Shown piece after piece: positions 75-31,069 of a stretch of 44,535 nt of DNA (position 1 is the stretch's first letter; every line of letters begins with the position of its first letter). The position numbers and the translations under genes are program-made. This DNA comes from Candidatus Nomurabacteria bacterium. GTDB taxonomy: Bacteria > Patescibacteriota > Minisyncoccia > Phycocordibacterales > UBA9973. The notes beneath the pieces were generated by a model, which did no database searches, was not told the DNA's origin, and saw only the letters and a list, made by a program, of their open reading frames with translations. The DNA lies in assembly GCA_043758875.1 (NCBI GenBank), contig JAYVMR010000018.1, forward strand, positions 1 to 44,535. Reading direction: 5' to 3'.

Positions 75-497
75 ATGAACCAAATACAAGGTATTATTAG
101 TAATCTCGCAAATTTGAAAGATATATTAAAAGATAATATGGAGAAGCAAGGAAAAGACAAGAAATTAATTGAAGATGAAATTGATAAATCCTTTGCTCTC
201 CAACTAATACTAGATCTTTGTAATCAAGAAAAGCATGGGTATCCCCTCACTAAACACCGACATTCTGAAAAAGATCCCTTGATTAAAAATGTACGTAGTG
301 GTTTAAGTCCCTCCAACAAACCTGATGGTATTAGATATTCGGCAAGTAATGGAGCAGCAGTACTGAACATGATGATAGTAATTAATGCTGATATCGTTGA
401 TTGTAATCAGCGACACCTTTTTACTCTTGATGAATTAATAAACTTAGCTATAAATGATTGGGAAAAGATTATCAAAAAGTTTCAGATTTTAAAGTAA
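75..497 (+). CDS. Hypothetical protein, possibly 5'-partial
   Basis: 140-aa ORF. The same frame has no stop codon from base 3 to the ATG at 75, so the gene may start upstream of the window. No recognisable motif. Confidence 0.4.
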   Translation: MNQIQGIISNLANLKDILKDNMEKQGKDKKLIEDEIDKSFALQLILDLCNQEKHGYPLTKHRHSEKDPLIKNVRSGLSPSNKPDGIRYSASNGAAVLNMMIVINADIVDCNQRHLFTLDELINLAINDWEKIIKKFQILK

Positions 498-572: not shown

Positions 573-1187
573 TCATATTTTCCGTGTAAGAATTGTAATG
601 AGATAAGGTATTAATGCTATTATCACTCCACTAATAAATCCCCATATTAATCCCATCTCAATTACATATTGTTTAATTAACCCAAAGTAATCTGAAGCAA
701 AATTTTCTCCTTTTGAAGATAGATAAATAAATTCTCCGTCTTGATTTATAAAAGAAGGTTCATGATTAATACAGTTTCTAAGAATAGCCTTAGCTTCTAC
801 AAGTTCTTTCGGGTAAGTAGTATTAGTAGAAATGTTTACAAGTTCATGGGGACTTTTCCAAATGTAATCTTGTATATAAGTCATTAAAACACCATTTGGA
901 TGAACTCGTAAATCTCCTTGATGGTCGCTTCCGTGTAAAAGATTTAAAGTTGATGATTGCGTAAGAACTGAATCAAAATGTGGGGTTCCAGCGTATTGTT
1001 CAATCATCTCACGTTCAGAATCGTAAGCTTGTGCAGTAGCATTTTGTACCACCCATTCTGCTCGATTTTTCTTTAAAATACGGCACATTCGCCACATTGG
1101 TAATACTTCTTTCATGTTCATTATTTTACCACGTACTAACAGATTATCTTGTTCTATTAAAGAAGGGTAATACTTCAAATTATTCAT
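573..1187 (-). CDS. Hypothetical tail-anchored membrane protein
   Basis: 204-aa ORF with a single C-terminal hydrophobic helix (GLIWGFISGVIIALIPYLITIL). An AT-rich -10-like hexamer (TAAATA) sits 6 nt upstream of the ATG. Confidence 0.5.
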   Translation of the reverse strand: MNNLKYYPSLIEQDNLLVRGKIMNMKEVLPMWRMCRILKKNRAEWVVQNATAQAYDSEREMIEQYAGTPHFDSVLTQSSTLNLLHGSDHQGDLRVHPNGVLMTYIQDYIWKSPHELVNISTNTTYPKELVEAKAILRNCINHEPSFINQDGEFIYLSSKGENFASDYFGLIKQYVIEMGLIWGFISGVIIALIPYLITILTRKI

Positions 1188-1381: not shown

Positions 1382-1930
1382 TTATGTAATATGAGATTTA
1401 ATATAAGCGACGATTGTATCTGCAATTTCTTCCGGGGTCTGGATTGAAGAGTCGAAATTTAATTCAGTAGACACCTTAGTATCGATATAAGCATCGTAAA
1501 TATTCTTAAACTTATTAGGGTCAACATTCGCAATCTTCTTAACCCCTTGTTTTTTTGCTTCAATTCTTTTTTCAAAGCGTGAGAGGAGTACTCCCCACGG
1601 AGCTTCTACGTTAGCAATAATGAGAGGTACACCAACTTCAGTGGCCAATGTCACGTAACTTTCAGGTTCACTCCAAAATGCACCTTCTTTGAGAATTGAG
1701 AGGTTATGAGAAAGTGCCGCTCTTGCGGCTGCAAGGACTATTTTCTGTACAGCTACTTTGTGAATTGAGGGTTCATAATCAGAGATGAGCCATTTCATAT
1801 TGTCATTTTTTGCATTAAAAATATTCCCATATCTTTCAGTTAAAATATCTGAAACCGAAGATTTACCGCCACATGACGGACCATTGATTATGAGAATGAA
1901 TTGTCTTTCTATGAGTTTTTCTTTTAACAT
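1382..1930 (-). CDS. P-loop NTPase / small-molecule-kinase-like protein (AAA_33 / zeta-toxin-like fold class)
   Basis: Walker A GPSCGGKSS at residues 17-25 of a 182-aa protein. Size and layout are typical of small P-loop kinases. TAGAAT lies 7 nt upstream of the ATG. Confidence 0.65.
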   Translation of the reverse strand: MLKEKLIERQFILIINGPSCGGKSSVSDILTERYGNIFNAKNDNMKWLISDYEPSIHKVAVQKIVLAAARAALSHNLSILKEGAFWSEPESYVTLATEVGVPLIIANVEAPWGVLLSRFEKRIEAKKQGVKKIANVDPNKFKNIYDAYIDTKVSTELNFDSSIQTPEEIADTIVAYIKSHIT

Positions 1931-1940
1931 AGGGATAATT

Positions 1941-2132
1941 CTAATTCTTAGTGCTTGAGGTATTAAACTGTTCCTTAATATACTGCTTAATCACTTCTGA
2001 CACTGGTTCTAAGGGCTTTAAAGATTGAAGAGCTTCTTTGCCTTGTGGAATTGTAGATTGATACTTTTCAATGATCGCAGGTTTTTGCAAAAGCTGCTTA
2101 ATATTGTGCTCGTCGTTGTTTATGTATAGCAT
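1941..2132 (-). CDS. Small hypothetical protein (63 aa)
   Basis: ORF packed tightly between the Ntn-like gene (stop at 2135) and the kinase-like gene. TATAAT lies 8 nt upstream of the ATG. No motif recognised. Confidence 0.4.
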   Translation of the reverse strand: MLYINNDEHNIKQLLQKPAIIEKYQSTIPQGKEALQSLKPLEPVSEVIKQYIKEQFNTSSTKN

Positions 2133-2134
2133 GG

Positions 2135-3442
2135 TTATGAATTATAATACTTATCAATAAAACCTCGGTTCAGTTCGATGTCAAAATAGTTTTTTCTCTT
2201 TAGCCATATGAAGCCATCACCCTTGGTTATGACGGCTACATCTACTGGCCCACCAACACTTTCATCCGAAGAATTTTGAGTGAACTTTCTTTTCAAAGAA
2301 GTGATACTAACAAGTGATTCTGCTAGTTCAGCCATGTCCTCTTTTCCCATGTAGTTCAAAATGTCCAGTAATGGTTGTGTTATGGTTTTTTGGCGGTAGT
2401 TTTCCAATTTATCTATAAGCGTGGTAGGTATGGTTTTTATGGCTGCGCTCGTGGCACTAGCTTCTGTAGCGTCGGTAATTTTCAAAGCGACTTCTTCAGA
2501 CAGAGTATTAAACGCCTCAGTGAGTGAAGAGTTGATTTCACTTTGGAAAGCAGGATCAATACCTTTTAGGACGGTCATTGTGACGTCTCTTTGGGCATAT
2601 GAAATAATATCTGCATTAAACTTTCCTGGAATAATATTAACTGGGTCATGAATTTTATAGCGTATGACGTCTTTTATAACATTTCCGATAGTGACCTGTT
2701 GGCTTGAGGGGTAAATTTCTTTTTCACCAAAGCCCATGAATATCAATCCTGAACTTGATTCAAAAATATAATCTACTTTAACTAAGCCGTATAACATTTC
2801 TCTTATCAAGTCTTTATCTACAGAGGTAAGTGCAAATAACGCGAACTTAGCTTTTATCTCGTCCTCGAGCACTTTTATTGTCTCGTCAAGCTGTTTACCA
2901 TGTTCAGCAATATATTCAGCTAAAGAAAACCGTACTAAGCTATTTTTAGCCATAGCATCAATTTGATCTCTGTAGTCTTTTATTTCCTGAGAAATAATTG
3001 GGGATATATGATCACTTGCGTCCTGATCGCTCATTCCAGAAGTCGTAATGTTGTTATTAGAAATTTGATCAAGAATTTTAGTTTTTAGGCTATTGAAATC
3101 ACCGCTACAAAAAGTGTAGAAATTATTTTCCTTAAACTCAGAGCTTATATAGCTTAAGTTCTTTGCTAGGAAAGTAAGAAAATCTGTTTTATATTTTTCT
3201 ATAGTATCGAACTTCTTTTTCTCAAGCTGTTTTCTATACATTTTTATTAACGTCTCCCACGGTATCCCCATGAACTGAGAACTATTATAAATTGCAATAC
3301 CTACTGGATGATACTTCGACAGAGTAAAAATTTTATTGCTCTTGTTGTAGACCTTTTTAATATTTCCCGCAGTTACCGTCACAGCACTATCAGCGGCAAT
3401 TACTACTCCTTGAGAATTCAGTACACCTATAATGGCTGTCAT
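2135..3442 (-). CDS. Divergent proteasome-beta/HslV-like N-terminal-nucleophile (Ntn) hydrolase with large insertions
   Basis: The N-terminus MTAIIGVLNSQGVVIAADSAVTVTAGNIKKVYNKSNKIF resembles HslV ([30 protein letters not shown]). Counting from Thr after Met removal gives T1, D17 and K33 at canonical proteasome positions. The central GLIFMGFGEKEIYPSSQQVTIGNV and the C-terminal DESVGGPVDVAVITKGDGF resemble conserved beta-subunit strands. At 435 aa it is about twice the normal size. Confidence 0.6.
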   Translation of the reverse strand: MTAIIGVLNSQGVVIAADSAVTVTAGNIKKVYNKSNKIFTLSKYHPVGIAIYNSSQFMGIPWETLIKMYRKQLEKKKFDTIEKYKTDFLTFLAKNLSYISSEFKENNFYTFCSGDFNSLKTKILDQISNNNITTSGMSDQDASDHISPIISQEIKDYRDQIDAMAKNSLVRFSLAEYIAEHGKQLDETIKVLEDEIKAKFALFALTSVDKDLIREMLYGLVKVDYIFESSSGLIFMGFGEKEIYPSSQQVTIGNVIKDVIRYKIHDPVNIIPGKFNADIISYAQRDVTMTVLKGIDPAFQSEINSSLTEAFNTLSEEVALKITDATEASATSAAIKTIPTTLIDKLENYRQKTITQPLLDILNYMGKEDMAELAESLVSITSLKRKFTQNSSDESVGGPVDVAVITKGDGFIWLKRKNYFDIELNRGFIDKYYNS

Positions 3443-3449
3443 ATGCGGT

Positions 3450-3458
3450 AGTATAGCA
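3450..3458 (-). promoter_or_regulatory. Extended -10 box TGCTATACT, 7 nt upstream of the ATG of the Ntn-like gene
   Basis: The reverse complement of 3450..3458 reads TGCTATACT. It has the same architecture as the boxes before core genes in this window. Confidence 0.5.
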
Positions 3459-3472
3459 ATATTTTACTATTT

Positions 3473-4792
3473 TTACTTCAAGGATATCTTCTTATTATCC
3501 AACAGTATCTCACTCTTCAAGCACCTCAGAAACTCCCGTTTCTCGTCCATTGACCCCTCAAGCAATATGAACTTGGCATAGTTGCGGATATCAATATCCT
3601 TCACCGCTACTACAGTCTTCGTTCCCAAAAGCATCTGCTCGAACTTCTTGAAACGGTGTACCTCCGCCGTTATTTTTTCTCTCATTGGCACGGTCTGGAT
3701 TTCAACATCGTCCATGAGTTCCTGCAATTGAACAACAAGCTCATCCTCGTTGATGTATCCGCTTTGGCACTGCGAATCCTTGATACGGGTGCACTTGTAG
3801 TAGACGTAACGGTGGACATTGCCGTTCTTCTGCTTCTTGAACTTCTCGTCGGCGGTGATGCCCGATCCGCACAGTCCGCAGGTCATTATCTTGGTGAAGG
3901 CGAACTCCTTCTGCTCGGATCTCGGCTGCAGTATCTGGCTCTTGATCTGCGACTGTACCAGGTCAAATAGGTCTTTTTTTATGATCGGCTCATGCGCGCC
4001 GTTATACCAGTTGCCCGACTGCTTTGGGAACTCGAAGCGTCCATAATAAAAGTGATTCTCAAGAATCTTGTAGAGATTGCCCAAGCTCAATGGCATGTTG
4101 TTTTCAGTCTTGAACTTGATGTCGTCCTTCAGCCAGTGATAAAGCTTTCGTCCGCTCCAGCCGTCATGACCTATTTTTTCAAACATCTGCTTGATGACTG
4201 GTGATCGTAAAGGATCAAGCACTGATTCGCATTTCTGGTCGATCCGCTTGTACTTGGTATATCCAGTTGGAGGTCTGCACGGCCACAGTCCCATTTCAAC
4301 CCTTGCCCTAAGCCCACGCTTCACATTGATGCTCTTGTTGTCATTCTCGAGCTTGGCCTGTGAGCAAAGAATCATGAGAAGAAATTTCTCATTTGGCGAG
4401 TTTGAAAATGTCTGCCCGTATGTCTGTATGTGGACTAGTTTCTTTTGATCCATCAAGTCTACAAGCGATCCAAGATCACCAGCGTTTCTACTCAATCTAT
4501 CAGGTGCCCAAGTGAGAATACCGTCAAACAATCCTTGTCGTAGTTCCTCGATCATTTCCTTGAATACGGGTCTTTGTCCAGAGCTCTTTGCGGAATGAGC
4601 TTCTTTTTTGATAGTGACAATGTTGAGATTGAGACGGCTCGCAATGTCGCTCATTTCTTTAGCTTGAGATTCAATGGACAATGCCTGAAGCTCATCTGCT
4701 TCTGAACTTTTGCGACAATATAGGCAATACCTGACTCTTGTTTCAGAAATGGATATATTGTTCGGAATTTTTCCTACAGTTGTCGTTTCCAT
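3473..4792 (-). CDS. Large serine recombinase (resolvase domain + recombinase domain + zinc ribbon)
   Basis: N-terminal YCRKSS...SIESQ and DRLSRN motifs of the resolvase/invertase catalytic domain. Central recombinase domain. Cys-rich CGLCGSG...YYKC zinc ribbon. 439 aa. Confidence 0.9.
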   Translation of the reverse strand: METTTVGKIPNNISISETRVRYCLYCRKSSEADELQALSIESQAKEMSDIASRLNLNIVTIKKEAHSAKSSGQRPVFKEMIEELRQGLFDGILTWAPDRLSRNAGDLGSLVDLMDQKKLVHIQTYGQTFSNSPNEKFLLMILCSQAKLENDNKSINVKRGLRARVEMGLWPCRPPTGYTKYKRIDQKCESVLDPLRSPVIKQMFEKIGHDGWSGRKLYHWLKDDIKFKTENNMPLSLGNLYKILENHFYYGRFEFPKQSGNWYNGAHEPIIKKDLFDLVQSQIKSQILQPRSEQKEFAFTKIMTCGLCGSGITADEKFKKQKNGNVHRYVYYKCTRIKDSQCQSGYINEDELVVQLQELMDDVEIQTVPMREKITAEVHRFKKFEQMLLGTKTVVAVKDIDIRNYAKFILLEGSMDEKREFLRCLKSEILLDNKKISLK

Positions 4793-4909: not shown

Positions 4910-5659
4910 ATGAAAATCATCACACTCAACACCTGGGGCGGTATAGCGGGAACACAAGGACTACTCGACTTCTTTAAAAAACATGAGGATACCGATATTT
5001 TCTGCCTTCAGGAAATATTTAATGGTGGTAAGGATGATGAGGTAGAAATGCAAGTACAAATGGAAAACAAGGAGTACAATCTTTTCAATTTAATTACTGA
5101 TGCCTTACCAAATCATAAAGGTTTCTTCCGACCCCATATAAAAGATTTTTATGGGCTAGCGATGTTCGTAAAAAAAGACATTACTCTCTTAGAAGAAGGA
5201 GAGGAATTTGTCCACCGCCATAAAGGATATATTCCAACAGAAAATCTTGGTTTCCACGCTCGCAATATTGAATATGTGAAAGTTATGGAAGATGAGAAAG
5301 AGTTGTGCATTATCAATTTTCACGGATTATGGAATGGGCAAGGAAAGACTGATACTGAACAACGATTAGAACAGTCAAGAAATATTATTAAGTTCATGAA
5401 TAGTGTTAAAACAGACTTTGTTCTTTGTGGGGACTTTAATCTTCTCCCAACGACTGAAAGTCTTAAATTGATTGAAGATATAGGATTAAGAAACTTGGTG
5501 AAAGAGAATAATGTTACTTCTACTAGAACTTCTCATTACACCAAGCCTGACAAGTTTGCTGATTATATTTTTACTACTCAAGAGATAGAGGTGAAGGATT
5601 TTAAGGTTTTGTCAGAGAAGGTTTCGGACCATGCACCGCTTTATATTGAGATAGAATAA
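4910..5659 (+). CDS. Endonuclease/exonuclease/phosphatase (EEP) family protein
   Basis: N-terminal KIITLNTWGG, internal GDFN, and C-terminal SDHAPLYIEI, which are typical EEP catalytic motifs. Confidence 0.85.
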   Translation: MKIITLNTWGGIAGTQGLLDFFKKHEDTDIFCLQEIFNGGKDDEVEMQVQMENKEYNLFNLITDALPNHKGFFRPHIKDFYGLAMFVKKDITLLEEGEEFVHRHKGYIPTENLGFHARNIEYVKVMEDEKELCIINFHGLWNGQGKTDTEQRLEQSRNIIKFMNSVKTDFVLCGDFNLLPTTESLKLIEDIGLRNLVKENNVTSTRTSHYTKPDKFADYIFTTQEIEVKDFKVLSEKVSDHAPLYIEIE

Positions 5660-5675
5660 TTATTAATACCAACCA

Positions 5676-6260
5676 ATGAAAAAAATACTATTATATCCAG
5701 GCGCTTTCAATCCTCCTCATTACGGGCATGTTTCTGCGGTAGAGCTAGCGTTAAAGAATAAGCCCTTTGACGAAGTGTGGATTATGCCGTCAGGAAAACG
5801 TGACGATAAGACAATATCAACGAGTTATGAAGACCGTCGAAATCTCGGAAACTTATTTGTTGAATACCTACAGAACAATCTAACAATTCCAGTTAAGTTA
5901 TTAACTGACGAGCTCGATGATACTACTGGGAGGTATACGCAAGATATTTTGAGACAGGTTAAATCAATGCCCAATGTAGAGATTATCCAGCTCATTGGCA
6001 CGGACGGAATAATTCATCTAAAAAATAAACTTTCCCCAGAAGATTTTACCAAGGAAAAATACATAGTTATACAAAGGGTTGGCTACGAACTTCCAAATGA
6101 TTTTTCTTATGCTGAAAATCTTTTAATTACCAATGACACCAGCAAGAATATATCGAGTACTCAGATCAGGGATATGATGAAAACAAATATTGGCAACATA
6201 GAAGATTTTGTACCAGAAAAAATAGCTTCTTATATTCGAGAACACCATCTTTATCAATAA
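5676..6260 (+). CDS. nadD: Nicotinate/nicotinamide-nucleotide adenylyltransferase (NadD-like)
   Basis: GAFNPPHYGH (the (H/T)xGH nucleotidyltransferase motif) and a C-terminal ISSTQIR motif. 194 aa. Confidence 0.85.
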   Translation: MKKILLYPGAFNPPHYGHVSAVELALKNKPFDEVWIMPSGKRDDKTISTSYEDRRNLGNLFVEYLQNNLTIPVKLLTDELDDTTGRYTQDILRQVKSMPNVEIIQLIGTDGIIHLKNKLSPEDFTKEKYIVIQRVGYELPNDFSYAENLLITNDTSKNISSTQIRDMMKTNIGNIEDFVPEKIASYIREHHLYQ

Positions 6261-6275
6261 ATGTAGTAACAACGA

Positions 6276-6312
6276 AAAATAAAAAAGCCACCGATCATTT
6301 TGATACGGTGGC
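6276..6312 (-). terminator. Intrinsic terminator oriented for the minus strand
   Basis: Stem gccaccg/cggtggc (6287-6293 / 6306-6312). On the minus strand it is followed by TTTTTTATTTTT. There is no T-tract on the plus-strand side. Confidence 0.7.
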
Positions 6313-6625
6313 TCAACGGATTGCCCGTCAATAGGTCGCTTGGTTTTCCGCACTACAAGACTCAATGCTGAGCCGATGCAGGGAGAAGCCTCTTGTTGAT
6401 ACAATCGCGGACCTAGTCGCAATCGTTCTTCAATCCAGTAAGAAGCACTCCGGTTGTCGTTTGCCCTCTGTTTCGTTTCAATCAGTTTTTCGGATCAACT
6501 TACTGATCGTTTTATTGAAACAGAATCGTTCACTGTCGTTCGATGTAGCTGCACCGTGAAGTCGTACTGCTACTGTGTCACTCTGTCGGCGATGGCTGAA
6601 AACCCGGGTGAGTAGATATATCAGC
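6276..6625 (-). ncRNA. Candidate ~350-nt non-coding RNA of unknown class (promoter-to-terminator unit without ATG)
   Basis: Minus-strand promoter TTGACA-17nt-TAAGAT (6660..6632) and minus-strand intrinsic terminator (6312..6276). There is no ATG on the minus strand between 6624 and 6313. Nested complementary segments are present (gtttcaat 6474-6481 / attgaaac 6513-6520; atcagt / actgat). No RNase P, tmRNA, SRP or 6S signature was recognised. Confidence 0.4.
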
Positions 6626-6786
6626 ATTAGTATCTTAGCATGGATAAGTTATTATGTCAAGAGATACGAAAAAGAGAGTGAGACACCTAAAAACAGTCTT
6701 TCTGTGTCTCAGTCTGTCTCACTTTCTTATAAAAGAGTGACATTTGACTGTCACTTTAATACTCAATCCCGTGTCACCTTTGTCAC
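6575..6786. repeat. Cluster of short TGTCAC / TGTCTCA motifs, including inverted repeat AGTGACA-N6-TGTCACT (6736..6755)
   Basis: GTGTCAC at 6575-6581 and 6771-6777. TGTCAC at 6749-6754 and 6781-6786, with the inverted copy at 6736-6742. GAGTGAGACAC at 6677-6687 versus GTGTCTCA / GTCTCACT at 6704-6723. Confidence 0.6.
6632..6660 (-). promoter_or_regulatory. Sigma-70-type promoter TTGACA-17-TAAGAT on the minus strand
   Basis: Plus-strand tgtcaa at 6655-6660 and atctta at 6632-6637, giving a 17-nt spacer. Confidence 0.5.
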
Positions 6787-6891
6787 TATTTGCCTATGCA
6801 CGAGAAGAGTTCGGTGTTTTTATTAAAAGATTAAAAAAGAGCATTACGGTGCAATGAACCGCGGGGTTCCATCTCGAGAAGGCTCACAAAC

Positions 6892-6918
6892 AAAAAAGCC
6901 GTCCATTTAAAGACGGCT
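6892..6918 (-). terminator. Intrinsic terminator of the 172-aa gene
   Basis: Stem agccgtc/gacggct with an 8-nt loop. An A-run on the plus strand (T-tract on the minus strand) follows directly, 13 nt downstream of the stop. Confidence 0.75.
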
Positions 6919-6930
6919 TGCAAGAACAAA

Positions 6931-7449
6931 TTAATATTCTTTTAAGAAATGGTTCATTTTCTTCATGATCTCAGTAACGGTACTAAACAGTGCCAGGTCA
7001 TCTTTTTCAAAAAGACTATTAGCTACAATGTGGTACCTGCATTGAGCGTACGGTTTAGAGTCTTTTGGTACGGAATGATGGTGAACAACCGATTCAAGCG
7101 CAATTACCCTTGAGGAAGCGGTTGACTCGTCCGGCCACTGAACCAAGAAGACAAGATCTTTACTGTTTAAGTAGAGGTTTTCCTTTGAAGTGTTGTTTTC
7201 GAGATGCATGGACCAGCTCATTGTAGAACCTGTTGGTTTTTCAATGTTCTGAAAGGCGGGTAGCATAATCTTTATGGTTTTTATTATGCTTGGGTCCGCA
7301 CCCGGCTTTTCAGTACTGCTATCTCCGTACATACTCTTTACATACTCATAAAGTGCAACAGGCGTATTAAGGATTTTCTCATCCTTTTCTGAGAGCTTTA
7401 ACTCAGATGTGGTTTCGTTCATGATATTTAATTTTAAGGTTTTTCTCAT
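6931..7449 (-). CDS. Hypothetical protein (172 aa)
   Basis: Clean ORF followed by its own terminator. No recognisable motif. Confidence 0.5.
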   Translation of the reverse strand: MRKTLKLNIMNETTSELKLSEKDEKILNTPVALYEYVKSMYGDSSTEKPGADPSIIKTIKIMLPAFQNIEKPTGSTMSWSMHLENNTSKENLYLNSKDLVFLVQWPDESTASSRVIALESVVHHHSVPKDSKPYAQCRYHIVANSLFEKDDLALFSTVTEIMKKMNHFLKEY

Positions 7450-7536
7450 ATTGCCTTAAATTGCACTAAAGTCAATACATTTCGCTAAATACCCTTATGC
7501 TGTATACAAGGCGGTTCCAATTTCTTCCCCCTAGGG

Positions 7537-7598
7537 TCACAAAAACTAAAACACACATTCTATTTTTGTAAATGGCATGTGTGTTTTAGTTTTTGTGA
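7537..7598. repeat. 22-bp perfect inverted repeat (hairpin) with 18-nt loop
   Basis: tcacaaaaactaaaacacacat (7537-7558) and atgtgtgttttagtttttgtga (7577-7598). No flanking T-tract on either strand. Confidence 0.85.
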
Positions 7599-8025
7599 AG
7601 GCGCAGCGTTGATGGTTCTGCCACATCAGAACCATCCGCGAGCCGGGGTCGCGAGTACTTAGTCCACGCAATCCACGAAGTGGGTGAGTAGACTTAGTAA
7701 CTTGTGACCATACCGATTATGTACGCGAAGCATTCCATCGTAACTGCGGGATCATTCCCGAAAAGGGGAACATGTTAAAAATGCTTTTATAGATGCTCTT
7801 AAGAAAACATTTGATGATATCGACCGAGGTCATTGGTGGTAATGAGCGAAATGGTTAACAAAAAGTATTTCCTTCTAGTAAGAAAATTGATTCTAAATCG
7901 TATTCAAATAGGTGACCTCTATTGGTCATGTACTTTATACACACTCTTGACACTTGACAAATTGAGTGTCAGTGTGATATATTGTACGTATCAATACGAA
8001 AAGGGATCCGAAGGGTGTTTGTGCC

Positions 8026-8601
8026 TTAGGAGCCCTTTTCTTTTTTATCTATGTATGTTCTGAGGTTTTCAAGGTAATCGAAGTATTCTGAACCAAGTGC
8101 CTTATACAATGAAGAGGCAAATTTCTTATTAGGAAACAGTATTTTTTTGAACTTGTTTTTGCTAACAAGATAATAGGCTAGCTTTTTATAGTCACCGTCT
8201 CCAGAAATAAGGAGTATCTTATCAGGAGTGTTCTCAATGAGGCTTTTCATCACTTCAAATACTATATCAGTATCAACATTTCCTTTCTTTGTTGATTTGA
8301 GCTTGCTGTTGTGCTCCTTAAACAATACGATGAAGCCAGCTCTCTGAATTTCCTTATACAAATCTTCGTGTTTGTCGTTTAAGTACCCTAGGACATAGTA
8401 TGCTTCCTTGACCCCATATTTTTCAGCAAGATACACACGGAATTTTGCCAAGTCTACTTCCCATGCAGTATCACAGGTGCAGTCCTCAAGATTAATATCC
8501 TTTATTTCTATACCCAAGCGTTTAGCGCAATCGCCGCATTTTGTAGTGCCGAAATACAAGTTTTGGGCATCTACAAAAGCAAAGTTGTTTTCCTTTTCCA
8601 T
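8026..8601 (-). CDS. NYN/LabA-like (PIN-like fold) domain protein
   Basis: N-terminal FAFVDAQNLY and a central ILLISGDGDY, the hallmark acidic motifs of NYN/LabA (DUF88) domains. 191 aa. Confidence 0.75.
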   Translation of the reverse strand: MEKENNFAFVDAQNLYFGTTKCGDCAKRLGIEIKDINLEDCTCDTAWEVDLAKFRVYLAEKYGVKEAYYVLGYLNDKHEDLYKEIQRAGFIVLFKEHNSKLKSTKKGNVDTDIVFEVMKSLIENTPDKILLISGDGDYKKLAYYLVSKNKFKKILFPNKKFASSLYKALGSEYFDYLENLRTYIDKKEKGS

Positions 8602-8742
8602 ATCGGCAATTGTAGTATTTTTACTTATTTTTATCCCAAAATTTTGGACACTATTATTTGATCAATAATTCCAAAGCAGTGATGCCGCTTTTTATATAAT
8701 CACTATTCCTAGCAAGTTCTGAAAGCCACGCAGTGGGGTTAT

Positions 8743-8773
8743 AAAAACAAAACCCTCTTCACAAGGAAGAGGG
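8743..8773 (-). terminator. Intrinsic terminator of the 102-aa gene
   Basis: Stem ccctcttc/gaagaggg (8753-8760 / 8766-8773), followed by a T-run on the minus strand (plus-strand A-run 8743-8752). Confidence 0.75.
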
Positions 8774-8780
8774 TAATGAT

Positions 8781-9089
8781 TTAGCCCAAGGAATCGGGGG
8801 ATGGAGTTCTTACATAATATTTTTTACGACAACCCCAACATCGGTATCTCTTTAATTTTCCGTTGAAGAATAATACGGAAATATAACGTTCAAGTTGGGT
8901 TCGATGAACGCGCTCATGCTCATCCATGACGTTCTTACACTGAGCACATGTTGCCTTATCTTTGACAACTTTTTTTATTAAGACTATGCGAATTATCGCA
9001 TAAAAAAATAATAGCGCGACAAGGGCTAAGCCCTCCAGTAGCATTGTTTCAGTTTCCATATTTTTTTTCTTCACTATACCAAAAAGCAT
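8781..9089 (-). CDS. Small membrane protein with C-terminal Cys4 zinc-ribbon-like motif
   Basis: One N-terminal TM helix (LEGLALVALLFFYAIIRIVLI), then CAQC...N27...CWGC. 102 aa. Confidence 0.5.
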   Translation of the reverse strand: MLFGIVKKKNMETETMLLEGLALVALLFFYAIIRIVLIKKVVKDKATCAQCKNVMDEHERVHRTQLERYISVLFFNGKLKRYRCWGCRKKYYVRTPSPDSLG

Positions 9090-9123
9090 TTATTTGTCAA
9101 CTCACGCGAGGGAAGCAGGGTGC

Positions 9124-9152
9124 TTGACAAAAATGCCGTTATACCCTATACT
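9124..9152 (+). promoter_or_regulatory. Near-consensus sigma-70 promoter TTGACA-17-TATACT
   Basis: ttgaca at 9124-9129, a 17-nt spacer, and tatact at 9147-9152. Confidence 0.6.
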
Positions 9153-9189
9153 CTAAAAAGAGTTCTTTCAACTGCACCTTCTTAAGCGT

Positions 9190-9280
9190 CGTTTTCGCTA
9201 CTGTATGCAGTAGCGAAACGATTCAATCATATAGTAATTATGTGATCAAGCCCCCATTCTCATGGCGGGCTTTTTCTTTG
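9190..9280 (+). other. Leader/sRNA candidate: stem-loop (9190..9220) followed by terminator-like hairpin + T-tract (9249..9280)
   Basis: ttcgctactg/cagtagcgaa is a 10-bp stem. agcccCc...gCgggct is a second stem followed by tttttcttt. Both lie downstream of the 9124 promoter and upstream of the ATP-grasp gene. Confidence 0.4.
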
Positions 9281-9367
9281 TTATACTGATCAGGGAGTAT
9301 ATTATAAGAACATACTCACCGGTTGACAGAACATATTTTCTATAGTAATTTCATAAAAAACCTTAAC

Positions 9368-10384
9368 ATGAAAAAAGCAAGAAAAAACCTACGACAGCCC
9401 TTACTTGCTGACCTTTTTAAAAAAATAGGAAAGAAAATAGGGGTCAAAGTCTTTGTGGAAGAAGAATGGGGAGTGGTGGGACAATTATCCTATCCCAACG
9501 GCATCAAACGATATTTTCGGGGCACCACGGTTGATATAAATACCATGGGGGCCTCAGAAATAGCTCGCGATAAAGATTATTCAAAAATATTTATGAGTAA
9601 GATGGGCTATTCTGTTATTCCTGGAAATAAATTTTATTCCGATGATTGGGCCAGAAGAATCAAGTCCAACCAAACCATCGATAAGGCTTGGCACTATGCC
9701 AAGAAAGTATCATTGCCGGTGTTTCTAAAACCCAACAGTAAAAGCCAGGGACTGGGAGTGACAAAAGTCCATACCAAAACTGATTTTTTTAAAACCTTTC
9801 GTTCCCTTGCTCGCATTGATAACGTCATTCTCGTTGAACGGGCCATTACCGGAAAAGATTATCGCATTGTTGTGTTAGACGATGAGATGATTTCGGCGTA
9901 TGAGAGGATACCGTTAATCGTCACCGGTGATGGAAAGGCCTCAGTGGCACAACTTCTAAAAAGAAAGGAACGGGCATTTAGAAAAGCGGGACGGGATAAA
10001 ACATTTAGATTGAATGATCCTCGTATCCAAGCGGTCTTACGTCGGCAAAAATTAACACTTGCCTCCGTTATTGCCAAGGATCAAAATGTCCAGCTCTTGT
10101 ATAATGCCAATCTTTCCACCGGGGGCACCTCTGTGGACGTAACGGAAAAGATCCACCCTTTTTACAAGGATATCGCTATTCGGGTAACAAAGGATATGGG
10201 GTTGCGGATGTGTGGCGTCGATATGATCATCGAAGGAGATATTGATACACCGACTGATCGTAACTATATTATCGAAATCAACTCCGCTCCCGGCCTTGAT
10301 CATTATGTAACACTCGGACTCAAGCAACAACGCATTGTTGAACAGTTGTACACAAAAGTACTCGTGGCAATGGGCAAGAAATAG
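9368..10384 (+). CDS. ATP-grasp ligase (cyanophycin-synthetase-N-terminal / RimK-like class)
   Basis: GKDYRIVVLD, NLSTGGTSVDVT and YIIEINSAPGLDHY are typical ATP-grasp motifs. I chose the ATG at 9368 over the TTG at 9323 given in the ORF track. Confidence 0.75.
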   Translation: MKKARKNLRQPLLADLFKKIGKKIGVKVFVEEEWGVVGQLSYPNGIKRYFRGTTVDINTMGASEIARDKDYSKIFMSKMGYSVIPGNKFYSDDWARRIKSNQTIDKAWHYAKKVSLPVFLKPNSKSQGLGVTKVHTKTDFFKTFRSLARIDNVILVERAITGKDYRIVVLDDEMISAYERIPLIVTGDGKASVAQLLKRKERAFRKAGRDKTFRLNDPRIQAVLRRQKLTLASVIAKDQNVQLLYNANLSTGGTSVDVTEKIHPFYKDIAIRVTKDMGLRMCGVDMIIEGDIDTPTDRNYIIEINSAPGLDHYVTLGLKQQRIVEQLYTKVLVAMGKK

Positions 10385-28844: not shown

Positions 28845-30617
28845 ATGAAGGCCTCAAAATATAAAACGGAATGGAACCTGGGCTTGCTCTATAAAAACGA
28901 AAAAGACCCGCAGATAGAAAAAGATATTAAGGTTATTGAGAACGCCTTTGCTTCTTTTGAAAAGAAATATAAAGGCAAGGATTTTACTAGTACTCCCAAA
29001 AAACTGTGCGCTGCGCTAGAAGAGTATGAAAAATTAATAGGAATTGCTGATAGTAAACCTATAATTTATTTAATGTTAGCAAACGATATGGATACAGCTA
29101 ACTCGACCATTACTGCCTTGGAAGCGGTAATAAACCAGCGCCTGCAGAAAGCAAGCAATAAAATTATTTTCTTCGAGCTATTAATTGCTCAAATTTCAAA
29201 AGAGCAACAAACTACGTATTTAAACCATAGTTCTCTAAAGCACTTTTCCTATCATTTGAAGAAAATTTTTGACACCGCAAAATATAACCTTTCTGAAAAA
29301 GAAGAACGGTTACTCGGTTTAGTGTATCAAACTAGTAAAAAAATGTGGGTTGATGCAAACAAAAAATTAGTAAGCGAGCAAGCAGTTTTACATAAAAATA
29401 AAATGATCCCGATCTCTCAGGCCACGGAAATAATTCAGGATTTACCCAAACAAGAAAGAAGAAAATTACGAAAAGATATTAATACTACCTTAAAATCAAT
29501 CAGCCATCTGGCAGAAGCGGAATTGAATGCCATTGTTAATTTTAAAAAAATAACCGATGAAGTCCGAGGGTTAAAATACCCTTTCACTTCAACAGTACTT
29601 CGCTATGAAAATGATGAGAAAGAAGTATTAGATCTGGTGAGTAGTGTTACCAAGGCCTTTCCGCTTAGTCATAGATATTATAAATTGCACGCGAAGCTTT
29701 TAGGCGAACAAAAGATTTTTGTTGCAGATTTATATGCTCCTATTGGGGAAATCAAAAAGAAATTTGATTATGAAACTGCAATTTCTTTGATAAAAAGAGG
29801 TTTTGAAAAATTTGGCCTTGAGTACAATACTATATTTGAAGGATATCTGATGAAAGGCCAGATAGACGCATTTCCGCGGAAAAGAAAGCGTGCGGGCGGG
29901 TACTGTATGTTCCATGCTCAGTTACCAGTCTTTATACTTCTTAATTTTACTAATAACGTAAAATCGGTACAAACACTTGCTCATGAAATGGGGCATGCTA
30001 TTCATTCTGAATTAAGTAGAAAAAATACTCCCCTATATCAAGATTTTACTACTTCTGTAGCAGAGGTCGCCAGTACTTTCTTTGAACAATTTATCGCCGA
30101 GGAACTGGGAGGAAATCTTTCCGAAGAGGATCAGTTTATCTTACTTCATGATCAGGTAGGAAGAGATATTATGGTCATTATGCGCCAAATTGCATGCTTT
30201 AATTTTGAAGTTGATTTACATGAAAGTATTCGCAAAGAAGGAAAAATTTCAAAAGAAGCCATGGCGGCAATGATGAACAAACACATGCAATCCTATATGG
30301 GAAGTGCTGTGGAACTAGGAGAGGAAGAGGGGTATACATTTGTATCCTGGAGCCATATTCGATCATTTTTCTATGTGTATAGCTATGCGTATGGATTATT
30401 AATTAGTAAGGTGTTATATCAAAAATGGAAAGAGAATAATTCTTACAAAACAAAAATTGAGCAATTTCTCAGTGCCGGCGGCTCCATGAGTCCAAAGGAT
30501 ATTTTCAAATCAATCGGCATTACCACCAACAAGGCATTCTTTGAGGCGGGATTGAAAGGCATCGAAGCGGATATCAACAAACTCGAAAAGCTCGCTAAAA
30601 AGTTCAAGAAAATCTAA
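28845..30617 (+). CDS. pepF: Oligoendopeptidase F (M3B family)
   Basis: HEMGHAIH zinc motif with a downstream E, and M3-like length (590 aa). The gene is visibly more AT-rich than its neighbours. Confidence 0.85.
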   Translation: MKASKYKTEWNLGLLYKNEKDPQIEKDIKVIENAFASFEKKYKGKDFTSTPKKLCAALEEYEKLIGIADSKPIIYLMLANDMDTANSTITALEAVINQRLQKASNKIIFFELLIAQISKEQQTTYLNHSSLKHFSYHLKKIFDTAKYNLSEKEERLLGLVYQTSKKMWVDANKKLVSEQAVLHKNKMIPISQATEIIQDLPKQERRKLRKDINTTLKSISHLAEAELNAIVNFKKITDEVRGLKYPFTSTVLRYENDEKEVLDLVSSVTKAFPLSHRYYKLHAKLLGEQKIFVADLYAPIGEIKKKFDYETAISLIKRGFEKFGLEYNTIFEGYLMKGQIDAFPRKRKRAGGYCMFHAQLPVFILLNFTNNVKSVQTLAHEMGHAIHSELSRKNTPLYQDFTTSVAEVASTFFEQFIAEELGGNLSEEDQFILLHDQVGRDIMVIMRQIACFNFEVDLHESIRKEGKISKEAMAAMMNKHMQSYMGSAVELGEEEGYTFVSWSHIRSFFYVYSYAYGLLISKVLYQKWKENNSYKTKIEQFLSAGGSMSPKDIFKSIGITTNKAFFEAGLKGIEADINKLEKLAKKFKKI

Positions 30618-30640
30618 ATTTGGGAGCTAAGCTCCCAAAT
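30616..30640. repeat. Palindromic terminator-like element aaatttgggagct-aa-gctcccaaat; inverted exact copy at 40192..40218
   Basis: The reverse complement of this 25-mer occurs exactly at the grpE / PaaX-like gene junction. Confidence 0.85.
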
Positions 30641-30648
30641 AAAATTCC

Positions 30649-30671
30649 ATTCGGCGACCTGGTCGCCGAAT
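30649..30671. repeat. Palindrome attcggcgacc-t-ggtcgccgaat (11-bp arms)
   Basis: Read directly from the sequence. It is the second of three consecutive hairpins after pepF. Confidence 0.8.
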
Positions 30672-30708
30672 TAAAGAAAATATAAAGCGTAGAGGTCGAG
30701 TTACTGCA

Positions 30709-30729
30709 CCAGGAGGTCCGACCTCCTGG
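30709..30729. repeat. Palindrome ccaggaggtc-c-gacctcctgg (copy of the element at 20282..20301)
   Basis: Shares 20 nt with the holB-internal copy. The arms carry an SD-like AGGAGGT paired with ACCTCCT. Confidence 0.85.
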
Positions 30730-30760
30730 AAGGGTCTAGCGGGATTTCATATTCGATGAT

Positions 30761-31069
30761 ATGGTTAAAAGAGTTGAACCTTTAAATAAATGGATTATGA
30801 ATATTTCATCAATATCCCCCGAACAGCATCAAAAGAATCTTGAGCGTTTGCGTCAGCTAAACAAAGATTTGCCGCCTGATGATGTTAAAATCCTTCTTCG
30901 ACTGGATCGAGATGTTTCTTATGAAGAAGTAATCAAGGACACCGTAACAATGCTAAATGGATTGGAAACTTACATTAAGAATGGCCATAGCCTGGAGGGA
31001 CTGCCTCAGGAAATTCGGGATACGTTTGGCGAAATTCGTGTTTACAGCACTTCAGACAGGGTTGCCTAA
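30761..31069 (+). CDS. Hypothetical protein (102 aa)
   Basis: ORF only; no motif recognised. Confidence 0.4.
   Translation: MVKRVEPLNKWIMNISSISPEQHQKNLERLRQLNKDLPPDDVKILLRLDRDVSYEEVIKDTVTMLNGLETYIKNGHSLEGLPQEIRDTFGEIRVYSTSDRVA

Follow-up and report, generated by a model that had tools for sequence, protein, structure and literature searches.

In a 44,535-nt stretch of DNA from a Candidatus Nomurabacteria bacterium (assembly GCA_043758875.1, contig JAYVMR010000018.1), called the window throughout, the gene of an oversized proteasome-like protein of 435 amino acids (aa) is directly followed by a gene for a protein of 63 aa, and the two make up a two-gene module (positions 1941-3442, minus strand) that we meet again in bacteria, archaea, phages and plasmids. 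From its predicted structure the larger protein very probably is a genuine, albeit very divergent, relative of the proteasome beta subunits and so belongs to the N-terminal nucleophile (Ntn) proteins. Its partnership with the small open reading frame (ORF) we regard, with high confidence, as obligate. Taking the whole chain of argument together, we tentatively propose, at somewhat less than an even chance, that this is a mobile module made up of a free-standing Thr hydrolase and a small protein that gates it, and that its biology resembles that of toxin-antitoxin (TA) systems or of conflicts with phages.

The pairing was surveyed at 88 loci, the window and 87 others. In all 88 a short ORF (42-86 aa, median 67 aa) abuts the Ntn gene on its downstream side, and in 86 of them its start falls between -30 and +30 nt relative to the Ntn stop codon; the same procedure, applied as a control to 609 other long genes of the same loci, found such an ORF for 17.7% (tight range) and 36.5% (wide range) of them. 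Over all copies, including those of phages, plasmids and Escherichia coli, the partner measures 35 to 86 aa. All-against-all clustering of 886 neighbouring ORFs returned the short downstream ORF as the sole recurrent neighbour, and no third conserved gene came out of this clustering. Out of about 6,500 short ORFs, iterative searches seeded with small ORFs gathered three families, which cover 38, 16 and 7 loci, and jackhmmer started from the 63-aa protein of the window retrieved seven true partners and none of about 6,400 decoy ORFs; the sole 'decoy' matched in the partner searches was the remnant of a frameshifted true copy. Since these families are recovered without true decoys, the small ORFs are real proteins. 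The pair was present in every annotated record that we opened: the Streptococcus satellite Javan103, a Porphyromonas phage, a Providencia phage and an Enterococcus faecium plasmid. Elsewhere the small ORF was unannotated or uncalled, as in E. coli H3 (L103, 9264-9413; 49 aa, enzyme WP_000123148.1), a Pantoea plasmid (L101, 7323-7430; 35 aa), a Stenotrophomonas phage (L100, 6262-6402; 46 aa) and Pedobacter (L004, 9316-9498; 60 aa). The small gene is often overlooked, by PGAP (E. coli, Pantoea), by depositors (Stenotrophomonas phage) or in gene calling (Pedobacter), which amounts to a systematic annotation gap. A single locus, in a Lentimicrobiaceae metagenome-assembled genome (MAG), combines an intact Ntn gene with a frameshifted small ORF (L045, 2637-2762 and 2675 onward); the frameshift may be an error of sequencing, or the partner may have been lost naturally there.

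An earlier reading of the same DNA, made from its letters alone (the original prediction), had listed four ORFs between positions 1382 and 4792. All four are present, head to tail on the minus strand and separated by 30, 2 and 10 nt; they code for a large serine recombinase, the Ntn protein, the small protein and a P-loop kinase (Table 1). That reading had joined Thr-protease, 63-aa protein and kinase into one three-component system behind the recombinase, and on this account the system would be mobilised together with the recombinase or controlled by it. The common orientation and close spacing of the four genes agree with this, as do the terminator-like hairpin that they share (fold energy -30.3 kcal/mol, z = -8.9, equalled by 0 of 200 shuffles) and the same arrangement on a second contig from the same or a near-identical organism (L094). 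The survey of neighbourhoods upheld the tight coupling of the Ntn gene to the small ORF and not the remainder: in tblastn searches with the window's neighbours the kinase was found at none (0/87) and the recombinase at one (1/87, L001) of the other Ntn loci, and the clustering of neighbours yields the small ORF alone. The kinase belongs to a family of 'predicted kinases' of about 180 aa and matches AAA_33, chloramphenicol-phosphotransferase-like and Zeta_toxin profiles; searches for plasmid homologues and for a PDB relative gave none, and homologues 72% and 63% identical to it lie in unrelated contexts: their neighbours are NUDIX, methyltransferase and HAD genes, and none is an Ntn gene. Close spacing, too, has a local explanation. 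The TAnnnT box that the original prediction had noticed 7-8 nt before each ATG does stand 7, 8 and 7 nt before the starts of the Ntn, small and kinase genes, and it is a habit of the entire window: of 35 long ORFs, 18 have such a box with its end 6-9 nt ahead of the ATG, and the distances peak sharply at 6-7 nt, in island genes and core genes alike; a Shine-Dalgarno-like (SD-like) motif precedes the start in only 2 of 35. Judged by these motifs the organism seems to use leaderless starts, and that of the Ntn gene probably is leaderless. Since each gene has its own -10-like box and starts appear leaderless, tight packing is the local norm. The kinase is an independent cargo gene, enzyme and small ORF are independent of both kinase and recombinase, and we hold the three-component system to be extremely improbable. 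At L001 (10459-13571), from a relative of the candidate phyla radiation (CPR) type, the pair stands beside a helix-turn-helix (HTH) protein, a Viral_Rep/RNA_helicase replication protein and a 508-aa serine recombinase 42% identical to that of the window; this locus looks like a small integrative or replicative element. Near the copy on the E. faecium plasmid there is an unrelated recombinase.

The proteasome-like nature of the larger protein follows from its architecture. An AlphaFold2 (AF2) model, built on 39 homologues (predicted local distance difference test, pLDDT, 83.5; predicted template modelling score, pTM, 0.77), presents its elements in the order of a proteasome beta subunit: strands S1-S4 (residues 4-52), helices, S5-S8 (231-283), helices, S9-S10 (400-415) and helix H5. 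The core beta-sandwich (residues 2-60, 229-296 and 390-420) is interrupted by two helical insertions, one at residues ~61-228 (helices 62-221, leading from S4 to S5) and one at ~297-366 (helices 297-362, from H3 to the conserved H4), and the roughly 240 extra helical residues that they bring double the size of the protein. In a Foldseek comparison with the PDB the top 50 matches all were 20S alpha or beta subunits or Anbu (probability 0.85-1.0; target-normalised template modelling score ~0.5), and the best viral match was a phage 'proteasome beta'; in this the original prediction, which had recognised an oversized proteasome-beta/HslV-type Ntn protein with helical insertions, was right. Column conservation, computed over 83 distinct homologues of bacterial, archaeal, phage and plasmid origin, is 0.73-0.87 in the core and 0.37-0.38 in the insertions. 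Three results weaken the case for homology with the proteasome: the Foldseek E-values are just ~1e-3, modest because of the ~240 inserted residues; support from sequence comparison is weak, with Pfam E-values of 0.015-0.06 that stay below the gathering score; and hhalign with the Thermoplasma acidophilum beta subunit (its sequence agreeing with the fragments in the PDB alignments) gave 70% probability for the C-terminal block only. The profile searches did find Proteasome and HslV, all below threshold, and scans of Pfam and NCBIfam with the enzyme gave nothing beyond these. For the protein of the window the Pfam Proteasome match covers residues 2-39 with an E-value of 0.058 (PF00227, 13.5 bits against a gathering cut-off of 22.4), and PF00227 matches 11 of 39 family members, all sub-threshold, the threshold being a curated one and not a biological criterion. 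Both single-sequence and profile searches of the PDB placed proteasome beta subunits on top (E ~0.01-0.9), and a family-profile search had archaeal proteasome beta as its best match (E = 0.013), the N- and C-terminal blocks being colinear. The conserved C-terminal block singled out by the original prediction indeed aligns to proteasome beta: ESVGGPVDVAVITKGDGF of the enzyme with SASGGMIDVAVITRKDGY, the latter being paired with SVGGPVDVAIITKGDGF in the HMMER PDB-profile alignment. AF2 model and Foldseek together settle the family identity where sequence alone is weak.

The residues of the active site are conserved to a degree that fits a working enzyme. The protein starts with Met-Thr, as the original prediction had read it. 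Among the 83 homologues, 80 have Thr and three have Ser at position 2, and in every one of them this residue comes directly after the initiator codon; a nucleophile in that place leaves no room for a propeptide. Methionine aminopeptidases by their specificity remove a Met ahead of Thr, and on this basis Met removal would expose Thr1 co-translationally. Fully conserved (100%) are D18, K30, K37, E394, D401, D409 and G410; position 395 always is Ser or Thr, and Q284 is a further family invariant. HMMER pairs T2, D18 and K37 with T1, E17 and K33 of an archaeal beta subunit (1pma_B), and K37 lies within a K-I/L-F motif that is aligned to the K33-L-F of the proteasome, after a 3-residue insertion relative to the canonical spacing. 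The original prediction had put Thr1, Asp17 and Lys33 at exactly the canonical positions; this stands for Thr2 and Asp18 and fails for Lys34, which is conserved in 27% of the homologues at a position mostly occupied by S, K, T or R, so that by conservation and alignment the catalytic Lys is K37 rather than K34. By alignment the second-shell residues Ser129 and Ser169 do not appear to be conserved: Ser129-Gly130 corresponds to about A283-Q284 and Ser169 to an invariant Val396. Position 393, which aligns with Asp166, is E in 59% and D in 12% of the homologues. The invariant E394 and the Ser/Thr at 395 may substitute for these second-shell residues. Given its intact Thr/Asp/Lys triad the protein likely is an active Ntn enzyme, either a hydrolase or a transpeptidase.

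Proteins of this kind have been catalogued before. Fuchs, Alva and Lupas (Bioinformatics, 2021; PMC8665760) described 22 new proteasome homologues, among them the Proteasome homologs with Multiple Insertions (PMI). In their account PMI-3 and PMI-4 lack a propeptide and have one long insertion after H1/H2 and another between H3 and H4, which they argue to be incompatible with rings and double rings; they list 501 nr90 sequences, PMI-4 being recorded from Proteobacteria, Firmicutes, Bacteroidetes, the Planctomycetes-Verrucomicrobia-Chlamydiae (PVC) group, other bacteria, Euryarchaeota and phages, Bacteroidetes and phages being unlisted for PMI-3, and informative genomic context is stated to be absent (PMC8665760). 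Representative sequences are HDY66466.1 and OGZ26396.1 (PMC8665760). The insertions of our AF2 model fall exactly at the two PMI-3/PMI-4 sites, a propeptide is lacking, and the taxa that we found (Bacteroidota, Bacillota, Planctomycetota/Verrucomicrobiota, Nitrospirota, Proteobacteria, Euryarchaeota and phages) fit the PMI-4 list. The 435-aa protein most likely is a PMI-4, an assignment made by the published description. The family also coincides with phrog_5990 (PHROGs v4, function unknown), which the protein of the window matches from end to end with E 2e-96 and phage copies with 1e-99 to 7e-152. The original prediction, which was aware of no described module of this make-up, thus cannot be taken to point to an undescribed type of protein. 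At 50% identity the family amounts to 6,050 clusters (E <= 1e-3) or 3,313 (E <= 1e-30), nearly all members being 400-457 aa long and aligned from residue 1, and it was found in no fewer than 551 species genomes; its genomic members nearest to the window's enzyme come from Saccharibacteria and Paceibacterota MAGs (59-62% identity), in keeping with a CPR host. It is far larger than the 2021 count, already catalogued and functionally uncharacterised: a literature search for a characterised proteasome-like or HslV-like component of a defence or TA system, and for functional follow-up on PMI, returned none. The pairing appears to be new information, the small partner not being reported in the 2021 paper; the protein family is catalogued, whereas the two-gene system and its lifestyle have not been described before. 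Enzyme and published PMI-3/PMI-4 thus share a proteasome-like core with Thr1/Asp/Lys, the lack of propeptide and AAA+ partner, both insertions and the PMI-4 taxa, and they differ in that the published set came without informative context while the family as seen here has an invariably adjacent small gene.

With the 20S beta subunits and HslV (family T1) the enzyme has in common the alpha-beta-beta-alpha sandwich, the N-terminal Thr, the equivalents of Asp17 and Lys33 and the C-terminal block GG-x-hD-hAhIT-x-x-DG. It differs from them in having twice their size, with the extra helical residues placed at ring and inter-ring sites, no propeptide and no unfoldase, in that Ser129 and Ser169 appear not to be conserved and Q284, E394 and S/T395 are its own invariants, and in scoring below the PF00227 gathering cut-off. 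As the original prediction had noted for this locus, there is no AAA+ unfoldase partner: none was found in the island or as a recurrent neighbour of the homologues (80 loci), in agreement with the 2021 catalogue (PMC8665760). Anbu and BPH likewise are Thr-type Ntn proteins of uncertain physiological role without an AAA+ partner, and Anbu is among the enzyme's fold matches; unlike the enzyme they are of ~200-240 aa, form rings or helical assemblies and have neither large insertions nor a small cognate partner. Connectase, a ligase of archaea, offers a further parallel: its proteasome fold probably functions without a barrel, and its helical additions are presumed to give specificity (PMC7980362). 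It differs, however, in lacking H1/H2 and in carrying a two-helix S3/S4 insertion over the active site (PMC8665760). The window's enzyme keeps and expands H1/H2 and has only a low-confidence S2-S3 loop of ~13 residues. To our knowledge connectase has not been described with an adjacent small partner. In organisation only, the module resembles the reversed-order type II TA systems (higBA, hicAB) and protease-based abortive-infection systems: two genes that abut or overlap form a compact operon, a conserved enzyme stands next to a fast-evolving and partly disordered small partner, and the occurrence is scattered over chromosomes, plasmids, prophages and satellites; it differs in that its small protein has no DNA-binding domain and the genes have no PADLOC match.

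The small partner itself is a sparse protein. In its AF2 model only the helix 44-60 (PVSEVIKQYIKEQF), which is C-terminal, amphipathic and conserved, is confident; the N-terminal ~40 residues probably are disordered, as the model suggests. Searches for relatives in Pfam and the PDB were negative, as were those in PADLOC and NCBIfam. Its database homologues number 14, all of 60-66 aa and all 'hypothetical', and a search for enzyme-partner fusions with the small-protein profile found none among these 14. One ORF, P0109 (L102, 2825-4582; 585 aa), couples Ntn residues 1-330 with a ThiF/E1-like domain (PF00899) and is known from two short Logan contigs; we discarded this 'ThiF fusion' as a ubiquitin-like lead, the ORF being truncated and without the catalytic C-terminus, and it probably stems from a broken gene or a chimeric assembly and not from a working fusion. 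The subfamilies of the partner follow a common layout and are kept apart by jackhmmer; hhalign links the window, Pedobacter and Bacteroidota types weakly through the helix (29-69%). By sequence comparison the partner evolves fast and the enzyme core is highly conserved, with the enzyme insertions as variable as the partner.

From these observations a mechanism can be sketched. Since the insertions lie at the sites of 20S ring and ring-ring contacts, a closed barrel is improbable, and the enzyme would act outside one and without an unfoldase. Having neither propeptide nor barrel nor unfoldase, a free-standing hydrolase of this kind would need another control of its active site and another means of substrate selection. 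The obvious candidate is the partner, which is obligate, coupled to the enzyme in stoichiometry, fast-evolving and in part disordered. We suggest that the C-terminal helix of the partner docks on the variable helical insertions of the enzyme and that the partner gates the unshielded active site, where it would either inhibit, like an antitoxin, or serve as a subunit for specificity or sensing; that it is a regulator or inhibitor of the enzyme we would put forward only as a working proposal, a little short of even. The perfect TATAAT within the enzyme gene is a possible separate promoter for the partner, to go by its sequence, and the partner could then also be made from a transcript of its own, as for a component needed in excess. 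The small protein might instead be the dedicated substrate of the enzyme, processed to an active peptide or, in the manner of connectase, bound as an acyl-enzyme and then ligated to a target as a tag. An obligate and tightly coupled gene pair would suit this, and so would the largely disordered partner, which resembles protease substrates and Pup-like tags, and the short motif that each subfamily has before the helix (GK[DE]xL; QQGMS; FPKSF) and that might be a site of recognition or cleavage; connectase itself is a monomeric proteasome homologue acting as a sequence-specific ligase (PMC7980362). These motifs, however, are wholly different across subfamilies while the active-site region of the enzyme is near-invariant, which a co-evolving docking surface would explain better than a fixed site of cleavage; the signature of connectase (two-helix S3-S4 insertion, loss of H1/H2) is absent from the model, and no conserved tag end of the C-terminal Gly-Gly or Gln type was seen in the partners. 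We consider a substrate or tag unlikely and keep to the gating of the enzyme by its partner.

The places in which the genes are found bear on what such a gated hydrolase would be for. The phage collection held 13 matches, seven of them in Streptococcus phage satellites. In Javan103 an element of ~10 kb closes with the two genes of the pair, which come after terS and a regulator; the Javan85 copy sits at the end of its prophage, behind holin and lysin. In a lambdoid phage of Providencia and, in E. coli H3, in the prophage of the Qin region, the gene is found between antiterminator Q and a methylase/tRNA/holin block. The copies of a Stenotrophomonas phage and of a prophage region on a Pantoea megaplasmid are inserts that point the other way. 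These are classic sites for cargo or 'moron' genes, at which toxins and anti-phage systems are carried. In the Porphyromonas phage the gene lies within the structural-gene block. The gene is present on ten plasmids, and its spread is patchy over CPR, Bacteroidota, Bacillota, Planctomycetota, Nitrospirota and archaea. The picture is that of a tiny autonomous cassette that inserts anywhere, often on mobile elements. A copy in Pedobacter hiemivivus (L004, 1-17311) lies in defence-island-like surroundings, amid TIR, HEPN, Fic, AAA_14/DUF4143, sigma-54-activator AAA and HTH genes.

An ordinary cellular protease for regulation or quality control, with the small protein as its adaptor or assembly factor, would be comparable to uncapped 20S, Anbu or BPH. 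Many copies are chromosomal and lie amid housekeeping genes (ALAD, PGK, ATP synthase, IF3/L35), the family is very large and extends over bacteria and archaea, and ATP-independent roles are favoured for such homologues by Fuchs et al. (PMC8665760). Such a role sits badly, however, with a patchy and horizontally transferred distribution, with flanking genes that never are the same, with the low-GC island that holds the copy of the window, and with the copies at the ends of phage satellites, in prophage moron slots and on plasmids; just 22 of 5,426 complete E. coli genomes have the gene, that of strain H3 inside its prophage. We therefore judge a housekeeping role quite unlikely. The beneficiary might also be the phage or satellite that carries the module; the enzyme would then, for instance, time lysis, help to take over the host or counter its defences by degrading a host protein, with the small protein as cofactor. 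The family being a PHROG, its place next to holin or lysin genes in three or four unrelated phages or prophages, and its position inside the structural genes of the Porphyromonas phage can all be read in this way; yet the positions are moron sites, the gene often runs against the phage late genes, most copies by far are chromosomal with no phage genes near, and CPR and archaeal copies adjoin core genes, so that a function for the phage is very unlikely in our estimate. A mobile-element lifestyle combined with a gated hydrolase points to TA-like, abortive-infection or exclusion biology, and the outcome would be TA-like stabilisation of the element, or abortive infection or superinfection exclusion by targeted proteolysis. 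That the module acts in conflict biology we advance with reserve, as something slightly less probable than its contrary.

Several observations count against this proposal. While fold, catalytic-residue conservation, pairing and mobility are there to be seen, the physical binding of the two proteins, the inhibitory role of the smaller one and the conflict function are steps that we infer. The 150 nearest chromosomal ORFs, profiled with Pfam and PADLOC and no proper background control, are heterogeneous and mostly of housekeeping type (ALAD, PGK, ATP synthase); defence candidates (pAgo, type IIG/III restriction-modification, PDC/HEC families) are a minority of these neighbours, and we claim no enrichment. 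The models of PADLOC-DB v2 matched neither the enzyme nor the small protein, the kinase or the recombinase. The small gene lies downstream of that for the enzyme, and a search of 86 small proteins for DNA-binding domains as usual in type II antitoxins (HTH, ribbon-helix-helix (RHH) or AbrB-type) found none. Finally, hhalign gave no link from the archaeal/Nitrospirota type of partner to the others, and homology of all the subfamilies thus is not demonstrable.

The module of the window is situated in a block of low guanine-plus-cytosine (GC) content. Over the first 1-10 kb the GC fraction is 0.33-0.43 against ~0.50 for the remainder, which codes for core functions such as FtsZ/FtsA, PriA, ribosomal proteins, RpoA and DnaK/DnaJ. 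The AT-rich accessory block of the original prediction is therefore well founded, as an accessory island in a chromosome, and the serine recombinase marks it as an integrative element. The left edge of the window is the end of the contig, and searches for tRNA genes and Rfam matches across the window found none.

Table 1. Genes and signals of the two-gene module and of its immediate surroundings (positions in the window)
Feature	Position	Strand	Evidence	Remark
Large serine recombinase, 439 aa	4792-3473	-	Resolvase + Recombinase + Zn_ribbon_recom domains; CcrB/XisF-like	Context only, outside module
TATACT, -10-like	3450..3455	-		7 nt before Ntn ATG; no SD
Predicted PMI-type proteasome-family N-terminal-Thr hydrolase, 435 aa	3442-2135 (2135..3442)	-	ORF, AF2, Foldseek, conservation	
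TATAAT, perfect	2141..2146	-		8 nt before small-ORF ATG; within 3' end of Ntn gene
Cognate small partner, 63 aa	2132-1941	-	Short ORF abutting Ntn gene	
TAnnnT box	1938-1943	-		7 nt before kinase ATG
P-loop 'predicted kinase', 182 aa	1930-1382	-	Walker A GPSCGGKS	Context only, outside module
Terminator-like hairpin, 19-bp stem	1358-1315	-		End of recombinase-Ntn-small-kinase string

Other genes of the low-GC block are found at 4910-10384, namely those for an EEP-family nuclease/phosphatase (4910-5659), a NadD-like cytidylyltransferase (5676-6260), a 172-aa protein without assigned family (6931-7449), a putative RNase with NYN domain (8026-8601), a Zn-ribbon protein (8781-9089) and an ATP-grasp ligase (9323-10384). 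Past the kinase, towards the contig end, there are two further ORFs, 75-497 (plus strand, 140 aa) and 573-1187 (minus strand, 204 aa), for which no Pfam, NCBIfam or PADLOC family was found, the sole match being one to PD-T4-7 at chance level (E 0.023). A second patch of low GC at 29001-31000 (0.35-0.39 against ~0.50) overlaps the 3' part of the gene for an M3-family oligoendopeptidase (28845-30617) and the intergenic region after it.

Enzymes of the proteasome family usually are seen as barrel-shaped degradation machines fed by unfoldases. The 2021 catalogue supplied many divergent homologues of them and no functional handle; for the largest of these divergent homologues there now are three, a linked small gene, carriage in the cargo slots of mobile genetic elements, and native prophage copies in E. 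coli that make for easy genetics. At its boldest the finding would be a new and very widespread class of two-component conflict systems built on a non-barrel proteasome homologue, in which the partner restrains the Thr hydrolase and infection or loss of the element frees targeted proteolysis (abortive infection, exclusion or addiction). We think this rather doubtful; if true, a PMI-type homologue would for the first time have a physiological role, and prokaryotic immunity would have its first effector from the proteasome family. Should the partner turn out to be a substrate or tag, a novel protease or ligase with sequence specificity could be gained from the pair as a tool, as happened with connectase. 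A conflict module of protease and inhibitor, if that is what it is, would represent a new enzymatic principle in prokaryotic immunity or addiction and would show the proteasome fold at work without compartmentalisation.

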